Virus genome (UHGV): UHGV-0134920
Length of the DNA: 10,725 nt
Source: a virus
Reading direction: 5' to 3' (one strand)
A model generated the notes under the pieces. That model was not told where the DNA came from. It saw nothing but the letters and a program-made list of their open reading frames with translations, and did not search any database. Made by a program: the position numbers and the translations under genes. Of the stretch, positions 3,035 through 10,512 are shown one piece after another; the stretch's first letter is position 1; each line of letters opens with the position of its first letter.

Positions 3035-3488
3035 AAACCGCTTGCAAAAAATTATCACGGGGCTGTATGCTTCCCCCGTCGCCCACATGGCGACCGGGTT
3101 TAGCAGCCTGAATACATCTGGCGGACAGCCGCCCACATCCGATAAGCGGTTTTTTTGTGTCCGTAAACCTACCCATACCCGCATTATGGCGGGGCGTAAC
3201 GGGGGAGCCTTTGTGCTCGCTGGTTTCCAGATGACCAGTCTGCTAACCCTGTTACGTCTCGCCACCATGTTTAGCAGCGTAGTAGCGAGACTCCTTAAAA
3301 TTCATCTGGGAGCCTTTCACATGGCTGTATTCGCACGCCCTTATTTTGTCTGGCGCTTTATGCAGTGCCTGACAGACAGTATTGCAATATTCACCGTTAC
3401 CGCTGCCACTGAGCGCGAAGCACGTGCACAGCTGCCGCACGCACATCTGATTTTTGTCGCCCGTATTCGTCAGGGGGTAGGCTTATGA
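3027..3488 (+). CDS. Ash-family-like protein with C-terminal Icd-like module
   Basis: ATG at 3027 overlaps the upstream stop by 8 nt. C-terminal ~55 aa (YFVWRFMQ...TEREARAQ...ARIRQG) are paralogous to the preceding 65-aa protein. An internal start near 3321 (MAVFARPYFVWRF) cannot be excluded. Stop overlaps the next start (ATGA at 3485-3488). Confidence 0.55.
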   Translation: MRKNRLQKIITGLYASPVAHMATGFSSLNTSGGQPPTSDKRFFCVRKPTHTRIMAGRNGGAFVLAGFQMTSLLTLLRLATMFSSVVARLLKIHLGAFHMAVFARPYFVWRFMQCLTDSIAIFTVTAATEREARAQLPHAHLIFVARIRQGVGL

Positions 3489-3935: not shown

Positions 3936-4155
3936 AATCCATTTTGAAGTATTAATCCACTCTGAAAACGCATTAATTAAAGCACGCGAAATGAATGCGT
4001 TGTTAATTAAATTAATTGAAGTGCCGGAAGGTGGCGAAGATCATTCATCATTAATGTTTGCCGCTGTTCAGACATTATTGACACCTGTTATTGATGAACT
4101 CAATAAGGCTATGGCAATTCACGAGAATAATAAAGCGCCCCACACCGGAGAATAA
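3928..4155 (+). CDS. hypothetical protein (75 aa), AT-rich gene
   Basis: ATG at 3928 overlaps the upstream stop at 3933-3935; AT-rich; no recognisable family. Confidence 0.45.
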   Translation: MHKIHFEVLIHSENALIKAREMNALLIKLIEVPEGGEDHSSLMFAAVQTLLTPVIDELNKAMAIHENNKAPHTGE

Positions 4156-4160
4156 AAATA

Positions 4161-4460
4161 ATGAAACTTAAATATTCTGGCTTAACTGCCAGTGGCAAAA
4201 CTCGCACTAAATTCATGCGCGGTGATATTTACCGCGACCAGTACGGCGGCACGGTAATGATTAAGGGCGTGGAGGAACGGCGCGTAACCTACCGTCGTGA
4301 AGGCTACGAATATGATTGCGTGATGCCTGTTTATCAGTTCGATCGTGATTTTTCTCTGGTGCAGGCCGTACCGCGTAACGTGCCCACCAGCAGGGAGAAA
4401 GCACGCGCCAATATTCAGGAAATAAAAAAGATGCTTAACGTATTCAGGGGTAAAAAATGA
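4161..4460 (+). CDS. hypothetical protein (99 aa)
   Basis: GGAG at 4146-4149 upstream; stop overlaps the primase start (ATGA at 4457-4460), indicating operon coupling with the replication gene. Confidence 0.5.
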   Translation: MKLKYSGLTASGKTRTKFMRGDIYRDQYGGTVMIKGVEERRVTYRREGYEYDCVMPVYQFDRDFSLVQAVPRNVPTSREKARANIQEIKKMLNVFRGKK

Positions 4461-6205
4461 AACTGGCACCGAACGTAAAAAAACAGCCACGCGGAATAAA
4501 ACACAAAGACACAGAGGTAATTATTTTCGCGGGTAGTGATGCCTGGTCGCACGCGAAACAATGGCAGGAGCAGGATGGCCCCGCATCCGGCGATAATGTG
4601 CCGCCTGTGTGGCTTGGGCCAAATCAGCTTGCCGAACTTGATGCACTGAAAATTGTTCCGGATGGAAAAAAACGCGTAAGGCTGTACCAGGCCGGAGAAC
4701 TGGATTTGGTGGAGACCAAAAAGATTGGTCAGAAGCTGGCGGCGGCAGATATTCAGGACGCAAATTTTTACCCCGAAGGAATGCACGTCCAGAAGTGTGA
4801 AAACTGGCGGCGCTATCTGAATGCTGAGCGTGAAAATATTGCCGCAGGGCTTACCATGCCGGAGCAGAAAAATACGCAACTGGCACAAATGGCAGACAGT
4901 GAGCGCGCACAGATGCTTGCTGGTCGATTTGATGGCGTTTGTGTGCATCCGGAAAGTGAAATCGTTCACGTATGGCGCGGCGGGGTATGGTGTCCGGTCA
5001 GCACAATGGAACTTAGCCGCGAAATGGTGGCGATCTATTCAGAGCACAGGGCCACTTTCAGCAAGCGCGTAATCAATAACGCCGTGGAAGCGTTAAAAGT
5101 TATTGCCGAACCAATGGGCGAGCCGTCCGGCGATTTGCTGCCGTTCGCCAATGGTGCGCTTGACCTGAAAACGGGGGAATTTTCCCCGCACACGCCGGAG
5201 AACTGGATCACCACGCACAACGGCATTGAGTACACGCCACCAGCACCAGGGGAGAATATCTGCGACAACGCGCCAAACTTTCATAAATGGCTTGAGCACG
5301 CAGCCGGAAAAGACCCGCGCAAGATGATGCGTATATGTGCCGCGCTGTACATGATTATGGCGAACCGGTACGACTGGCAGATGTTTATTGAGGCCACCGG
5401 AGACGGCGGGAGCGGCAAAAGTACATTCACCCACATCGCCAGCCTTTTAGCGGGGAAACAAAACACGGTAAGCGCGGAAATGACATCGCTTGATGATGCT
5501 GGTGGGCGTGCGCAGGTTGTCGGGAGTCGTCTTATCGTCCTGGCAGACCAGCCGAAATATACAGGCGAAGGCACGGGCATCAAGAAAATCACGGGCGGCG
5601 ACCCCGTGGAAATCAACCCGAAATATGAAAAGCGTTTCACTACGGTAATCAGGGCGGTGGTGCTGGCGACCAATAACAACCCGATGATATTCACCGAACG
5701 GGCCGGAGGCGTGTCACGTCGTCGGGTTATTTTCCGCTTCGACAATATCGTAAGCGAGGCAGAAAAAGACAGGGAGCTACCGGAAAAGATCGCGGCTGAA
5801 ATCCCAGTCATTATCCGCCGCTTGCTGGCGAACTTTACCGACCCTGAGAAGGCACGGGCTTTACTACTGGAACAGCGTGACGGTGATGAAGCTCTGGCAA
5901 TAAAGCAACAGACGGATCCGGTTATTGAGTTTTGCCAGTTCCTGAATTTTCTGGAGGAAGCGCGCGGCCTGATGATGGGTGGCGGTGGCGATTCAGTGAA
6001 GTACACGACCAGGAACAGCCTTTACCGCGTCTATCTGGCGTTTATGGCATACGCCGGAAGGAACAAGCCGCTAAACGTGGCTGAGTTCAGCAAAGCTATG
6101 AAGCCAGCGGCGAAAGTTTACGGGCATGAATATATTACGCGGAAAGTCAATGGAGTTACGCAGACTAACGCAATAACAACAGACGATTGCGACGCGTTTT
6201 TATAA
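4457..6205 (+). CDS. replication initiator, P4 alpha C-terminal-like SF3 helicase/NTPase (primase-helicase family)
   Basis: 582 aa; Walker A GDGGSGKST, Walker B-like RLIVLADQP and SF3 motif C VVLATNNNP. Followed immediately by an iteron array. A catalytic primase (toprim/AEP) domain cannot be confirmed by eye. Confidence 0.85.
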   Translation: MKLAPNVKKQPRGIKHKDTEVIIFAGSDAWSHAKQWQEQDGPASGDNVPPVWLGPNQLAELDALKIVPDGKKRVRLYQAGELDLVETKKIGQKLAAADIQDANFYPEGMHVQKCENWRRYLNAERENIAAGLTMPEQKNTQLAQMADSERAQMLAGRFDGVCVHPESEIVHVWRGGVWCPVSTMELSREMVAIYSEHRATFSKRVINNAVEALKVIAEPMGEPSGDLLPFANGALDLKTGEFSPHTPENWITTHNGIEYTPPAPGENICDNAPNFHKWLEHAAGKDPRKMMRICAALYMIMANRYDWQMFIEATGDGGSGKSTFTHIASLLAGKQNTVSAEMTSLDDAGGRAQVVGSRLIVLADQPKYTGEGTGIKKITGGDPVEINPKYEKRFTTVIRAVVLATNNNPMIFTERAGGVSRRRVIFRFDNIVSEAEKDRELPEKIAAEIPVIIRRLLANFTDPEKARALLLEQRDGDEALAIKQQTDPVIEFCQFLNFLEEARGLMMGGGGDSVKYTTRNSLYRVYLAFMAYAGRNKPLNVAEFSKAMKPAAKVYGHEYITRKVNGVTQTNAITTDDCDAFL

Positions 6206-6491: not shown

Positions 6492-6806
6492 ATGCGCATA
6501 CATCAAAATAACTTAACAAACATATCAGCCGAAAACATGAATCAGGGGCGACAAATGGCCATAATTCACAGAGACAGAACACAGGCAAAATATAAAGCGT
6601 TAGACATGACAGAGCTTTCCCTAAAGGTGGCAATCAGAACGATAGACCGCCACACGCGGGAAGGATACGCGAAGGAACATCCCGACCTGATAAGCGCATT
6701 CATGACCACGGCGGCGGCAAACTTTGCCACGCTGACAGAACGGGAGATTGCCGAAGCGGAACAGGTAACAACCATCAACGTTAAAACCGGAGAGCAGACA
6801 GCATGA
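6492..6806 (+). CDS. hypothetical protein (104 aa)
   Basis: GAGGGGGG RBS at 6475-6482; stop overlaps the ssb start (ATGA at 6803-6806). Alternative internal starts at 6536 and 6555. Confidence 0.5.
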   Translation: MRIHQNNLTNISAENMNQGRQMAIIHRDRTQAKYKALDMTELSLKVAIRTIDRHTREGYAKEHPDLISAFMTTAAANFATLTEREIAEAEQVTTINVKTGEQTA

Positions 6807-7213
6807 CAGCACAGATAGCAGCTTACGGGCGGCTGGTGGACGACCCGCAGGTAAAACAGACCAGTAAGGGCACACCGATGACGCTGGCGCGTATGGCGGT
6901 ATCGCTGCCATGCAGCCAGGCACAGGATGGACAGGCGACGTTATGGCTATCGGTCATCGCATTTGGTAAGCAGGCCGACTTCCTGGCTAAACATCAAAAA
7001 GGCGACGTTGCCAGCGTATCCGGCACGATGCAGGTCAGCCAGTGGACCGGACAGAACGGGGAAACGCGGCAGGGCTGGCAGGTTATTGCAGACAGCGTAA
7101 TCAGTGCCCGTGCGGCACGTCCTGGCGGGAACAGACGCAAGACCACAGGCACACAGGGTAATCAGCCACCAGCGGGAGGCGATGCCCCTTACGGTGATGA
7201 TATTCCGTTCTGA
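6803..7213 (+). CDS. ssb: single-stranded DNA-binding protein
   Basis: 136 aa; OB-fold SSB pattern (AYGRLVDDPQVKQTSKG...WLSVIAFGKQADFLAKHQKGDVASVSGTMQVSQW), Gly/Pro/Gln-rich linker and acidic C-terminal tip ...GDDIPF typical of bacterial and phage SSBs. Confidence 0.85.
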   Translation: MTAQIAAYGRLVDDPQVKQTSKGTPMTLARMAVSLPCSQAQDGQATLWLSVIAFGKQADFLAKHQKGDVASVSGTMQVSQWTGQNGETRQGWQVIADSVISARAARPGGNRRKTTGTQGNQPPAGGDAPYGDDIPF

Positions 7214-7223
7214 GGGGGTGAGG

Positions 7224-7472
7224 ATGGTACATGACCGCATAGCGGAGGAACTCGAGGCAAAAGGCTTTTACCGGAGGGCGGCGGCACGATGGGGTGAAGT
7301 CATGCAACTGGTGGAGACAGACAAGGAACGGCATCAGGTTACGATGCGACGGCTGGAATGTTCCAGGAAGGCACAGAGGCCACCGGAGCCGCCAACGGAG
7401 AACTATGCAGACCTGAGAAATGCAGTAAATCGCACTTACGCAGACATGGGGCTGAGCAAATTAGCAGAGTAG
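7224..7472 (+). CDS. possible PerC-family-like transcriptional regulator (tentative)
   Basis: 82 aa from ATG 7224 (alternative GTG 7218). Motif EELEAKGFYRRAAARW resembles the conserved PerC/Pch segment as recalled. The N-terminal part of the 122-aa track ORF overlaps ssb out of frame and is rejected. Confidence 0.4.
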   Translation: MVHDRIAEELEAKGFYRRAAARWGEVMQLVETDKERHQVTMRRLECSRKAQRPPEPPTENYADLRNAVNRTYADMGLSKLAE

Positions 7473-7495
7473 GAATACCAGAACCACACCACACA

Positions 7496-7518
7496 GCCGG
7501 AGCAATCCGGCTTTTTTG
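7496..7518 (+). terminator. rho-independent terminator (first of two)
   Basis: GCCGG-agcaat-CCGGC hairpin followed by TTTTTTG. Confidence 0.5.
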
Positions 7519-7523
7519 CGCCC

Positions 7524-7566
7524 AAAAAAAGCCCGATAAGGTCAGAGGTGGCTTATCGGGCTTTTG
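7524..7566. terminator. bidirectional rho-independent terminator
   Basis: 10-bp stem GCCCGATAAG (7531-7540) / CTTATCGGGC (7552-7561), flanked by A7 upstream and TTTTG downstream. Confidence 0.6.
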
Positions 7567-7641
7567 CATATGAGGTTTTTTGGTGCACTGACACACATGA
7601 TCGGGATAATCATTTCATAATTTGCAACGCAACTCAATATC

Positions 7642-7696
7642 ATTGCACAAAATGCAATCATGATTATAATCATAACTGGATGAACATCCAGTTATG
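7642..7696 (+). promoter_or_regulatory. candidate sigma70-type promoter of the head operon overlapped by palindromic operator-like sites
   Basis: -35-like TTGCAC (7643-7648), 16-nt spacer, consensus -10 TATAAT (7665-7670). Palindromes ATTGCA-caaaa-TGCAAT (7642-7658), TGATTATAATCA (7661-7672) and perfect 12-bp arms CATAACTGGATG-aa-CATCCAGTTATG (7671-7696). Confidence 0.5.
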
Positions 7697-7726
7697 ATTT
7701 TTTAAGTCAAAGAGGAATTTCTTACT

Positions 7727-7933
7727 ATGGCTGAAGAGAAAAAAGGCGGTGTTTCGGTGTACATAAGCCCCGACATCGTGAAGGCGCTCAAGGAACGCCA
7801 CCAGCAGAACGTAAAAGCAGGCATTGCGGCAGGACTTGATCCGCTGGCGATGGTTGAGCCGTCAACAGGCTGGCAGGTACGCGCCTATTTACGCGCGGCG
7901 CTGGGTATGAATCAGGTTCACGGGGGTGAATAA
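7727..7933 (+). CDS. hypothetical protein (68 aa), first gene of the head operon
   Basis: AGAGGA RBS at 7711-7716; stop TAA overlaps the capsid gene ATG (7931-7935). Confidence 0.5.
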   Translation: MAEEKKGGVSVYISPDIVKALKERHQQNVKAGIAAGLDPLAMVEPSTGWQVRAYLRAALGMNQVHGGE

Positions 7934-8988
7934 TGACAGTAAAAGCAATAGCACTTAACACTAACCAGCTTTTTGCGTACCTGAATCGCGAGGATATTGC
8001 GGAATTTAAATTCAGTCCGCTGTTTACCGCGCTGTTTTTCCCGAACGTGGCGACATTCAACACACAGGACATCATGTTAGATAACCTGGATATTGAAGAA
8101 GTCACTATGTCGGCGTTTTGTTCGCCTATGGTGGGTAGCCAGGTTCAGCGCGATAAAGGGTACGAAACAAGCATTATTCGCCCTGGCTACATGAAGCCAA
8201 AACACGAAATCGATCCATTAAAAACAATAATGCGCATGGCTGGAGAAGATCCAGCACAGCTTAACGACCCTACCTACCGCCGTATGCGCCTGATTACTGG
8301 CAACATGCGCCGCCAGATAAACGCCATTAAAGCGCGCGAGGAATGGCTGGCGGTAAATGCGGTAACGACCGGAAAAAACATCATTGAGGGCGAAGGCATA
8401 GAGCGCTATGAAATCGACTGGAAGATACCGGAAAAAAACATCATAGAGCAGGCCGACGGTAAAAAATGGTCAGAGCAGGACAAAGACATACACGACCCAA
8501 TCTATGACATTGAGCTATACGCAGATCAGGCAGGTTGCCCCGCAAACGTCATGATTATGGGCGTTGATGTATGGCGCATGTTACGCAGCTTTAAAAAATT
8601 CCGTGAACTGTACGATCTCTCCCGTGGTTCAGAATCCGCCGCAGAGCTGGCATGTAAAAACCTGGGCGAAGTGGTGAGCTTTAAAGGCTATCTTGGTGAT
8701 CTGGCCCTTATCGTCTATTCCGGCAAATACACTGACAGCGACGGCACAGAAAAATATTTCCTTGAGCCTGATTTGCTGGTCCTGGGCAACACCAACAATA
8801 AAGGGCTGGTGGCCTATGGTGCGATTATGGAACAGGAAGCGGTAAGAACGGGCGCAACGCAAAACATGTTTTACCCGAAAAACTGGATTGAGGACGGCGA
8901 TCCGGCGATTGAGTACGTGCAGACGCACAGCGCACCGCAGCCGGTTCCGGCAGATATTCGCAAATTTGTTACCGTCAAAATTGGTTAA
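7933..8988 (+). CDS. major capsid protein, lambda gpE family
   Basis: 351 aa; colinear similarity to lambda gpE as recalled (FKFSPLF..LFF; RPGYMKPKHEIDP; EDPAQLNDPTYRRMRLITGNMR; KGYLGDLALIVYSGKY; VLGNT; YPKNW; SAPQPVPAD). Confidence 0.9.
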   Translation: MTVKAIALNTNQLFAYLNREDIAEFKFSPLFTALFFPNVATFNTQDIMLDNLDIEEVTMSAFCSPMVGSQVQRDKGYETSIIRPGYMKPKHEIDPLKTIMRMAGEDPAQLNDPTYRRMRLITGNMRRQINAIKAREEWLAVNAVTTGKNIIEGEGIERYEIDWKIPEKNIIEQADGKKWSEQDKDIHDPIYDIELYADQAGCPANVMIMGVDVWRMLRSFKKFRELYDLSRGSESAAELACKNLGEVVSFKGYLGDLALIVYSGKYTDSDGTEKYFLEPDLLVLGNTNNKGLVAYGAIMEQEAVRTGATQNMFYPKNWIEDGDPAIEYVQTHSAPQPVPADIRKFVTVKIG

Positions 8989-9000
8989 CGGGGGGATTCT

Positions 9001-9336
9001 ATGGACACTCCATACATTGAGTTATTTGCAGGCAGTCAGCAGGTATCCACGACGCTGGTACATTTTGCCGCTGATGCTGGCGTTATTCAGGAATTTACCC
9101 CGCTGATGCTGGCGGACAATGGCGAGTTTAAGCCGTGGGATGGTCAGGAATCTGGCAAGGCTGTTTATCTGACTTCGTACCCCGTGGACACGTCAAAGCA
9201 GAAATCAGCACAGTGTTACAAGACGGGGATATTTAATATCGCCGCCGTAAACTGGCCTGAGAGCGCCGACACTGACGCGAAAAAATGCGCCGCCTTTGCG
9301 GGTTCTGGCGTATCCGTTCAGCCGCTGGCGCGATAA
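9001..9336 (+). CDS. head decoration protein, lambda gpD family
   Basis: 111 aa; matches to lambda gpD as recalled (TPLMLAD, KPWDG, YKTGIFN, WPESADTDAKKCAAFAGSG). Confidence 0.85.
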   Translation: MDTPYIELFAGSQQVSTTLVHFAADAGVIQEFTPLMLADNGEFKPWDGQESGKAVYLTSYPVDTSKQKSAQCYKTGIFNIAAVNWPESADTDAKKCAAFAGSGVSVQPLAR

Positions 9337-9348
9337 GCAGGGGAAACG

Positions 9349-9762
9349 ATGGCAACGAATGAAAGCATCATGGCGCTACCGCTGGCGAGTAAATTTAAAG
9401 CAGAAGCGCGGGCAATGGCTGACAGAGGTTTATCAACCTACGAGGCCGTATATCAACTCAACAAACTGGAAGAACAGGACAAGCCGCGCGCTGATGCGAT
9501 TATGGCGCTTCATGAGCATAAAGACTATCAGCCGCTGTTACGTGCAATGGCAAACGTGCCATGTATTAGCGTCGATAATGCTCGTGAAATCCTGAACATG
9601 ACCATAGAGCAGGAGCGCCCAAAGGTTGCACCAGAGCTTACCGCAGCCTTTGAAAACTTTATGGACATGCACAGCCCGCAAGCCGTATCAGCTGGCATGG
9701 CGTACGATGGCAGAAACCAGGGCGATGACGGCGACATCGATCGCATACTGAAAACCATCTGA
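9349..9762 (+). CDS. hypothetical protein (137 aa), last gene of the head operon
   Basis: CAGGGGAAA RBS-like sequence upstream of ATG 9349; acidic; followed by a strong terminator; no recognisable family. Confidence 0.55.
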   Translation: MATNESIMALPLASKFKAEARAMADRGLSTYEAVYQLNKLEEQDKPRADAIMALHEHKDYQPLLRAMANVPCISVDNAREILNMTIEQERPKVAPELTAAFENFMDMHSPQAVSAGMAYDGRNQGDDGDIDRILKTI

Positions 9763-9768
9763 GACAAG

Positions 9769-9792
9769 GCCGGAGAAATCCGGCTTTTTTTT
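9769..9792 (+). terminator. rho-independent terminator
   Basis: GCCGGA-gaaa-TCCGGC hairpin followed by T8 (9785-9792). Confidence 0.8.
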
Positions 9793-9824
9793 ACGGGTCC
9801 TTTCCGGCATATGGACCCGTTACG

Positions 9825-9858
9825 GGGCGGCGACCTCGCGGTTTTTCGCTATTTATGA
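9825..9858. other. lambda-type cos site (cosN core plus conserved flank)
   Basis: GGGCGGCGACCT at 9825-9836 equals the lambda 12-nt cohesive end as recalled. The next 22 nt CGCGGTTTTTCGCTATTTATGA (9837-9858) differ from the recalled lambda left-end CGCGGGTTTTCGCTATTTATGA at one position. Lies ~135 bp upstream of a Nu1-like gene, as in lambda. Confidence 0.7.
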
Positions 9859-9930
9859 GCCTTTTCAGGGGGGTGGTGGTGGTTTTGTTGTTTGCTCTAT
9901 CTTTATGAATGAAAAGGGAAAGATGCAAAC

Positions 9931-9969: not shown

Positions 9970-10512
9970 ATGAAATCGCACCTGATGAACAAAAAAAACA
10001 TGGCGAAAAGCTGCCGTGTAAGTGCGACAGCGTTCGACAAGTGGGGAGTGACTCCCGTTGAACGTAAAGGCCGTGAGGCGTTTTACGATGTTGCCAGCGT
10101 GATAGACAATAGGGTTAACAATGCAATTAGCCAGCTTACAAACGACAAAGGCGATATTGATGATGATGAACTCTTACGAGTCAGGATCAGATTACTGACA
10201 GCACAGGCGGAGGCGCAGGAACTTAAAAACGAGCGCGATCGCGGTGACGTGATCGATACTGAGTTTTGCCTGTACGCGCTTTCAAAGCTGGCGAGTCAGA
10301 TTTCATCAATCATGGACAGCCTCCCGCTTACTATGCAAAGGAGCTTCCCACAGATTACCCCCGCCATGCTGGATAGGCTTAAAAGGGAAGTGGTTAAAGC
10401 CTGTAATGCCAGTGCCAGAGTTGCCGACAACCTCCCACAGATACTGGCTGATTACTTGAAAGAAACAACCGGAAACGTACCGGAAAAGTTGCAGCCGAAT
10501 AAAGATAAGTAA
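9970..10512 (+). CDS. terS: terminase small subunit, lambda Nu1-like with divergent N-terminal DNA-binding domain
   Basis: 180 aa (alternative start ATG 9985, MNKKN..., aligns better with the Nu1 N-terminus MEVNKKQ). C-terminal two thirds are similar to lambda Nu1 as recalled (RLLTAQAEAQELKNERDRGDVIDTEFCLYALSKLASQISSIMDSLPLTMQRSFPQ versus RLTRAQADAQELKNARDSAEVVETAFCTFVLSRIAGEIASILDGLPLSVQRRFPE). N-terminal ~55 aa are much less conserved. Confidence 0.8.
   Translation: MKSHLMNKKNMAKSCRVSATAFDKWGVTPVERKGREAFYDVASVIDNRVNNAISQLTNDKGDIDDDELLRVRIRLLTAQAEAQELKNERDRGDVIDTEFCLYALSKLASQISSIMDSLPLTMQRSFPQITPAMLDRLKREVVKACNASARVADNLPQILADYLKETTGNVPEKLQPNKDK

Follow-up and report, generated by a model that had tools for sequence, protein, structure and literature searches.

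Results

The 10.7-kb window (the whole stretch analysed, 10,725 nt, UHGV-0134920) is an Escherichia coli phage-inducible chromosomal island (PICI) of the EcCICFT073 type. Such islands characteristically occupy ∼10–11 kb at a chromosomal site. Pfam and PHROG matches recovered the PICI gene set in its order, with int, alpA, a primase/replication gene, capsid and decoration homologues, Rpp, and a cos site, and the main landmarks are as follows.

2–1261: integrase (int)
1758–1964: AlpA-like regulator
4457–6205: D5-type primase
6803–7213: SSB
7224–7472: PerC-family protein, by equivalence to the annotation of related locus L001 (the list of open reading frames gives 7104–7472)
7727–7933, + strand: first gene of the operon, a 68-aa protein (phrog_3255, c1498-like), function unassigned
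7933–8988, + strand: lambda-E-like major capsid homologue (Pfam, PHROG)
9001–9336, + strand: D-like head decoration protein (Pfam, PHROG)
9349–9762, + strand: Nu3/C-like protein (Pfam, PHROG)
9766–9787: terminator closing the capsid-homologue operon (terminator scan)
9825–9836: lambda cosN cohesive-end 12-mer, GGGCGGCGACCT
9970–10512: Rpp, a Nu1-like small terminase (TerS-like)

The cosN 12-mer is followed, still before Rpp (window 9766–9870), by sequence that resembles the left end of the lambda genome. EcCICFT073 itself, which lies between roxA and phoQ in NC_004431.1, matches the window in gene order and is nearly base-for-base identical to it upstream of the 68-aa ORF, perfect dyad included; there, too, promoter and dyad precede the island's own 68-aa ORF and capsid homologue. 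When positions 7470–7960 were used as a query, matches were found in 598 of 5,426 complete E. coli genomes (∼11%). Elsewhere in the window, a full-length match to the C4 antisense RNA of P1/P7 type (Rfam RF01695; 72.7 bits, with the gathering score at 45) lies on the + strand at 3182–3269, a region where related loci annotate Icd-like cell-division-inhibitor genes.

For comparison we assembled ∼100 related loci. They came from E. coli chromosomes, from IMG/VR by two pattern scans, from a protein-guided scan, and from looking up diverged homologues of the 68-aa ORF; scans of a collection of species-representative genomes gave nothing useful. Once duplicates are merged, the intergenic region is represented by 55 distinct variants and a longer region by 85, and as the neutral yardstick we used the nucleotide diversity (π) of the adjacent genes at their 4-fold degenerate sites, 0.174. 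A single architecture is common to all E. coli loci with this operon. The PerC-family gene that lies between SSB and the promoter is less constant, being adjacent in 53 of the 94 loci with at least 900 bp of upstream sequence. In Nissle 1917 the gap of ∼415 bp between SSB and the 68-aa ORF carries no annotated gene (cf. L107:7787–8203), in two further loci without the PerC gene (L100 and L101) AT-rich sequence lies directly upstream of terminator t2 (below), and in some loci a PerC homologue is found downstream of the operon instead. We considered the PerC-family protein as a dedicated activator and rejected it, as the promoter is unchanged where the gene is missing (e.g., Nissle 1917).

The features between the PerC-family gene and the 68-aa ORF are listed below.

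7495–7517, + strand: intrinsic terminator t1, after the PerC-family gene, with a stem at 7495–7512 and a T-run (terminator scan, RNA fold)
7527–7570: terminator t2, stronger than t1, with an A-run before the stem and a T-run after it (inverted-repeat search, fold)
7609–7627, + strand: conserved upstream block AATCATTTCATAATTTGCAA, at ∼−69 to −51
7642–7658: ATTGCA-N5-TGCAAT dyad, overlapping the −35 and the spacer
7643–7648, + strand: −35 hexamer TTGCAC, of which TTGC is invariant
7665–7670, + strand: −10 hexamer TATAAT, within a 14-bp palindrome at 7660–7673
7668–7699, + strand: full 15+15 inverted repeat, which if wholly transcribed would form a terminator-like hairpin abutting the T6 run
7674–7693: predicted LexA operator (SOS box) AACTGGATGAACATCCAGTT, ∼−4 to +16 of the predicted start
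7698–7703, + strand: T6 run in the 5′ leader (π 0.008)
7710–7717, + strand: ribosome-binding site AAGAGGAA of the first gene, nearly invariant

Positions 7570–7726 are predicted to be the sigma-70 promoter of the morphogenesis-gene operon (68-aa ORF, E-like, D-like, and Nu3-like genes). The preliminary description had already taken this region for the capsid operon promoter with a consensus −10, and the comparison bears this out, with π in TATAAT at 0.008 as against 0.174 at 4-fold degenerate sites. The arrangement TTGCAC, 16 bp, TATAAT is conserved across orthologous regions: five lineages retain TTGC-N2, the 16-bp spacer, and TA(T/A)AAT (E. coli; Salmonella, L096; Pluralibacter, L098; the diverged loci L102, L104, and L164–166; and the chimeric locus L003), the −10 being TAAAAT in the L102 type. 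A simple promoter scan missed this promoter, whose −35 agrees with the consensus at 3 of 6 positions, and offered TTCATA-18-TATCAT in its place, the −10 of which (TATCAT, 7638–7643) is not conserved (π 0.21–0.36). Transcription is predicted to start near G7678 ± 2. Upstream, t1 and t2 fold together at −36 kcal/mol, and t2 is possibly bidirectional. The block at 7609–7627 is nearly invariant (π ∼0.01 vs. 0.174 at the neutral sites) and is kept in Salmonella, in Pluralibacter, and in the L102-type lineages that lack the box; a search of the window found no second copy of it in the island. This block probably binds a further factor; candidates for its role are an activator site and an UP-like element.

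All three palindromes of the preliminary description were found where it had placed them. TGATTATAATCA occupies 7661–7672 and extends to the 14-bp palindrome ATGATTATAATCAT at 7660–7673, around TATAAT. The large dyad, given as CATAACTGGATG-aa-CATCCAGTTATG at 7671–7696, is present but had been drawn too short, as its true arms are 15 nt long and 100% complementary about a 2-nt spacer (7668–7682/7685–7699). No other inverted repeat in the window is as long, and the longest that arose by simulation was 11 nt in 60 first-order Markov runs of the window and 12 nt in 60 runs matched to the AT-rich local base composition. The two small palindromes are about as frequent as chance predicts, with three 12-bp palindromes in the window (2.95 expected), one of 14 bp (0.8 expected), and seven 6-N5-6 dyads (2.9 expected). 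Neither is a robust candidate for an operator, because ATTGCA-N5-TGCAAT, although kept in most lineages, is disrupted in L007 and in L003, and Salmonella lacks the 12-bp palindrome.

The perfect 15-nt arms are allele-specific and not a family trait, since variation in the region peaks in the outer left arm. Among the 85 distinct longer-region variants, π is 0.32–0.52 at positions 7673–7675 and 0.00–0.18 at their pairing partners 7692–7694, and 22 of the 55 intergenic variants have a G.A mismatch at 7673:7694. What does not vary is the core of the dyad, CTGGAT-N4-ATCCAG at 7676–7691 (π 0.000 for CTGGAT and 0.019 for ATCCAG).

This core has the geometry of an SOS box, with CTG-N10-CAG in the 20-bp site AACTGGATGAACATCCAGTT and an A/T-rich centre, and the box begins 4 bp downstream of the conserved TATAAT, over a start site that is itself predicted. 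Scored with a symmetrised matrix built from 18 published E. coli SOS boxes (Table 4, PMC3009722), 7674–7693 is the top match of the window at 20.2 bits, within the leave-one-out range of the 18 known boxes (6.6–27.6), and none of 2,000,000 random 20-mers reached that score. When a heterology-type index was recomputed from these 18 boxes, the site received 7.0 (0.3–9.3 for the boxes themselves), which lies between uvrB/ruvA (ruvA 6.5) and dinB/polB/dinG (dinG 9.3). The site is thus quantitatively similar to established SOS boxes. On the other side, boxes with CTGG/CCAG arms are of the weaker class. LexA had been excluded in the preliminary description on the ground that the arms are CTGG/CCAG, but this exclusion was mistaken, since ruvA (CGCTGGATATCTATCCAGCA), cho (CACTGGATAGATAACCAGCA), and uvrB (...ATCCAGTA) of E. 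coli share these arms (PMC3009722) and since the site has the CTG-N10-CAG spacing and, by its score, falls midway among the validated boxes.

The box is also conserved. CTG and CAG are invariant in the 55 variants as well as in two other genera, the 4 nt at the centre change but are mostly A/T, and 54 of the 55 distinct E. coli variants score 16–22 bits, the exception carrying a 1-nt insertion; the scores in Salmonella and Pluralibacter are 18.1 and 17.7 bits. The substitutions 7682 G→A, 7683 A→T, and 7688 C→A each raise the LexA score, and those at 7682 and 7688 also break the dyad, whereas substitutions in the flanks lower the score slightly. The 7688 C→A change (ATCCAG→ATACAG), seen in L012, L066, L072, L078, and L080 beside clearly different upstream sequences, breaks the core of the hairpin yet shifts the box toward the LexA consensus; its presence in differing backgrounds suggests recurrence or recombination. 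Matches of at least 15 bits in the 957 kb of fetched loci are confined to this promoter and to the islands' int–alpA intergenic region, and the promoter box and an int-proximal box are the sole matches of at least 11 bits in 22 kb around EcCICFT073.

The int-proximal box of the window, AGCTGTACAGAAAACCAGTA at 1260–1279, is its second-best match (16.9 bits) and lies directly after the int stop, upstream of a TATAAT (1309–1314), a small unannotated ORF (1339–1590, with no match in Pfam or PHROG), and a terminator (1598–1621). LexA-like boxes between int and alpA recur in several island lineages (L002:3393 and 3504; L107:2074; EcCICFT073, L190:9289, 18.1 bits). The arms of AGCTGTACAGAAAACCAGTA are CTGT/CCAG. 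The two boxes therefore have only LexA-consensus features in common, which speaks against recognition of the CTGGAT palindrome by an island-specific protein.

A diverged lineage (loci L102, L104, and L164–166) keeps the promoter, the T-run, and the ribosome-binding site but has neither box nor hairpin. LexA control is therefore not universal among these islands, and the persistence of the T-run without the hairpin shows that it is a feature of the leader and not a terminator tail. The box of Pluralibacter is displaced 11 bp downstream relative to that of E. coli. An imperfect 12-bp tandem duplication (AACTGAATTTTT / AACTGGATGTTT; Pluralibacter gergoviae, L098:2930–2975) shifts it by about one helical turn from the −10, and the hairpin then directly abuts the T-run. 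Locus L003 (E. coli JNEC-KY176, 4000–4330) is a one-off recombinant found in a single genome, in which the portable module running from t2, which marks its 5′ edge, to ACTGG (7679) is followed by the leader of an HK97-type capsid-forming island; the junction ACTGG|TGCC falls inside the left half of the box, and the right half is deleted. Because the shared module stops at ACTGG, the portable unit ends at the predicted start. We rejected L003 as proof that capsid-forming islands share this promoter, since it is a single recombinant genome. The capsid-forming island CP-933C/OI-51 has a different promoter and no box. The one SOS transcriptome that we found for a relevant island (EDL933 with ciprofloxacin, PMC11125564), in which capsid RNA changed −1.8-fold, was set aside as counter-evidence: it concerns CP-933C/OI-51 and is thus uninformative here.

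Discussion

We consider it somewhat probable (roughly 55%) that the core of the large palindrome is a LexA site and that the capsid operon is derepressed by the SOS response, like operon I of the staphylococcal pathogenicity islands (SaPIs). RNA polymerase would use TTGCAC (7643–7648), the 16-bp spacer, and TATAAT (7665–7670) and would initiate near G7678, and a LexA dimer on 7674–7693, spanning ∼−4 to +16, would block initiation. DNA damage would activate RecA, LexA would cleave itself, and the operon would be derepressed at a time that would coincide with the induction of SOS-inducible lambdoid helper prophages. The preliminary description had put the promoter under a dimeric factor. With a dyad over the predicted start, occlusion by a dimeric repressor is indeed the most economical explanation, and it was in leaving LexA out that the earlier account went wrong. 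The signal sensed would then be the host SOS response, LexA binding and SOS inducibility being what we infer for the predicted operator.

Some features of the site speak against this reading. Its symmetry is far above that of real SOS boxes, and beyond the 20-mer, at 7673:7694 and 7671:7696, compensatory changes have arisen independently at least four times, which LexA binding alone does not account for. A rival explanation is that the inverted repeat acts mainly as RNA, with the hairpin of 7668–7699 and its U6 forming an intrinsic terminator or attenuator. It would halt transcripts that begin at an upstream start or that read through from the early operon (replication/PerC), and the capsid genes would come on only once termination is overcome. 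The terminator scan does flag the repeat (14 pairs and a T-run), its fold is stable (−17.7 kcal/mol, z −6.3), and a hairpin of −9 to −22 kcal/mol is formed by every variant, those of Salmonella and Pluralibacter included; the Pluralibacter hairpin is next to the T-run, with no part of it reaching back to the −10. Outside the LexA 20-mer, pairs also show compensatory or wobble paths, from T-A through T.G to C-G, and twice to G-C, at 7673:7694, and from C-G to T-A at 7671:7696, together with many states that are uncompensated. Double changes were found at three pairs and none of 500 shuffles reached the observed covariation score, and further compensations occur in L145, L152, L155, and L163, but this is to be read beside the 22 of 55 variants mismatched at 7673:7694 and the unequal diversity of the arms, the outer left being hypervariable and the right not. 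The hairpin resembles Rho-independent terminators and attenuators in having a stable stem followed directly by six T, yet it differs from them in that the stem is A-U rich, with 4 G-C among its 14 pairs and an A-U base, and in that its 5′ arm lies over the −10 of its own promoter. Because of this overlap in E. coli and Salmonella, transcripts of the only conserved promoter begin inside the hairpin and do not contain both arms. The upstream TATCAT is not conserved, for which reason we also rejected a layout of the lambda PR′/Q type (upstream promoter, sigma-dependent pause at TATAAT, terminator). Read-through from upstream could contain both arms, but it must first pass the two strong terminators that already stand 100–200 bp upstream. 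The T-run and ribosome-binding site survive in the lineages without a hairpin, and 7688 C→A breaks a central G-C pair while lifting the LexA score in differing upstream backgrounds. Rfam gave no credible family in 7450–7800 (best 22 bits against a gathering score of 208). A mainly RNA-based function is thus unlikely. The stability of the hairpin in all variants and the compensatory paths nevertheless lead us to retain a secondary role as a possibility, in which the extension of the dyad to 15 nt would act as a hairpin terminator that insulates the operon from early-operon read-through, beside its main function.

Another explanation, that of the preliminary description, is an operator for a dimeric regulator encoded by the satellite or its helper, which would couple the capsid genes to helper infection. 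A palindromic operator across the start site is the usual arrangement for phage repressors, several small DNA-binding candidates are encoded by the island (AlpA-like, YlcI/YnfO-family, and PerC-family proteins), and at least one more factor is indicated by the conserved block upstream. However, neither the dyad nor that block has a second copy in the element, the PerC gene is not constantly adjacent, and nothing similar to the promoter turned up in 50,697 phage records: a sensitive blastn of 7566–7730 against them gave marginal matches of at most 40 bp, all downstream of the dyad, so that we rejected a helper-phage origin of the operator and found nothing to favour the sensing of helper infection that had been proposed. 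The 68-aa product was likewise considered, as a ribbon-helix-helix autorepressor, and rejected. Its AlphaFold model (pLDDT 73) is a β-hairpin with two helices, which fits no DNA-binding fold and found no fold match in the PDB at E below 1, and its N-terminus, including the N-terminal strand, is alike in lineages with and without the dyad. With such a regulator, both the match to the LexA matrix and the differently armed second box would have to be coincidence, and we regard it as improbable. It is very improbable that the palindromes have no regulatory role at all, as would be the case if the promoter were constitutive and the symmetry came from AT-rich sequence, the near-palindromic TATAAT, or a past palindromic duplication. 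Such an origin would suit the chance frequency of the small palindromes, the allele-specific nature of the long perfect arms, and a perfect −10 suggestive of a strong promoter, but it leaves unexplained why the CTGGAT-N4-ATCCAG core is invariant while its neighbours and the 4-fold sites vary, why it is kept in three genera, and why simulations never approached an inverted repeat of 15 nt.

The preferred reading, a LexA operator, can be compared with known sites and systems. Like the ruvAB and cho boxes, the site has CTG-N10-CAG with a comparable score and index, and its CTGGAT/ATCCAG arms are identical to those of ruvA; in contrast to them, the predicted site is near-symmetric (9+9 of 10+10 positions) within a 15+15 inverted repeat, and its centre is GAAC and not alternating A/T. 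Among mobile elements, coliphage 186 tum and the Gifsy antirepressors are switch genes under LexA control. The same is described for the P1 promoter of GIL01 (PMC4551915). In all of these, as predicted here, a mobile element uses host LexA directly as a damage sensor, but they concern early switch or antirepressor genes and not an operon of structural genes, so the box at 1260–1279 would be the closer analogue.

The nearest parallel to the capsid promoter is SaPI operon I, the packaging module, which is LexA-controlled (Ubeda et al. 2007, PMID 17581119, as summarised in PMC5052747). There, as predicted here, a satellite operon for morphogenesis or packaging is under the host SOS repressor, and its expression, which does not depend on the island's master regulator, is timed to coincide with induction of the helper prophage by the SOS response. 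The sequences and genes are unrelated, however, the Gram-positive LexA motif being itself a different sequence, and LexA control in the present case is a prediction. The operon also differs in content, since it encodes homologues of lambda E, D, and Nu3, and because the terminator and cos site precede Rpp, that gene may fall outside the operon of the LexA box. LexA control of a packaging-type operon is thus known in staphylococcal satellites, and we found no report of it for those of E. coli: LexA occurs in the reference list only of three E. coli island papers (PMC6092414, PMC6739421, and PMC10530653), and two preprints on capsid-forming islands and the EcCIMP1 paper are silent on the promoter of this operon. 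In EcCIMP1, a different island, DNA damage alone does not induce alpA, whereas the helper does (PMC11773190), and any LexA input would therefore be an extra layer and not the master switch. We tentatively suggest, although with more doubt than conviction, that islands of the EcCICFT073 family read the SOS response directly at two sites, the int-proximal box and the capsid-operon promoter, in parallel with helper-dependent activation by AlpA, and that the capsid element serves twice, in DNA as an operator for LexA and in RNA as a terminator hairpin that insulates the operon.

Among Gram-negative phage-inducible islands EcCICFT073 serves as the reference, and we found no description of how its late (capsid-homologue) genes are controlled. 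Deletion of c1499 or c1500 does not relieve its interference with lambda (PMC6092414). If LexA does not bind, an unusually long and partly co-varying promoter palindrome needs another explanation. If it does, a lexA(Def) host or mutated boxes would provide a handle on the function of the capsid and decoration homologues, and quinolones and other SOS inducers are predicted to switch these genes on. Should the SOS response be read at both sites, DNA-damaging antibiotics would prime the morphogenesis genes of the satellite even without a helper, convergently with SaPI operon I. A true LexA operator at this promoter would thus extend the rule of a packaging module under SOS control from the SaPIs to an unrelated, Gram-negative lineage of satellites.
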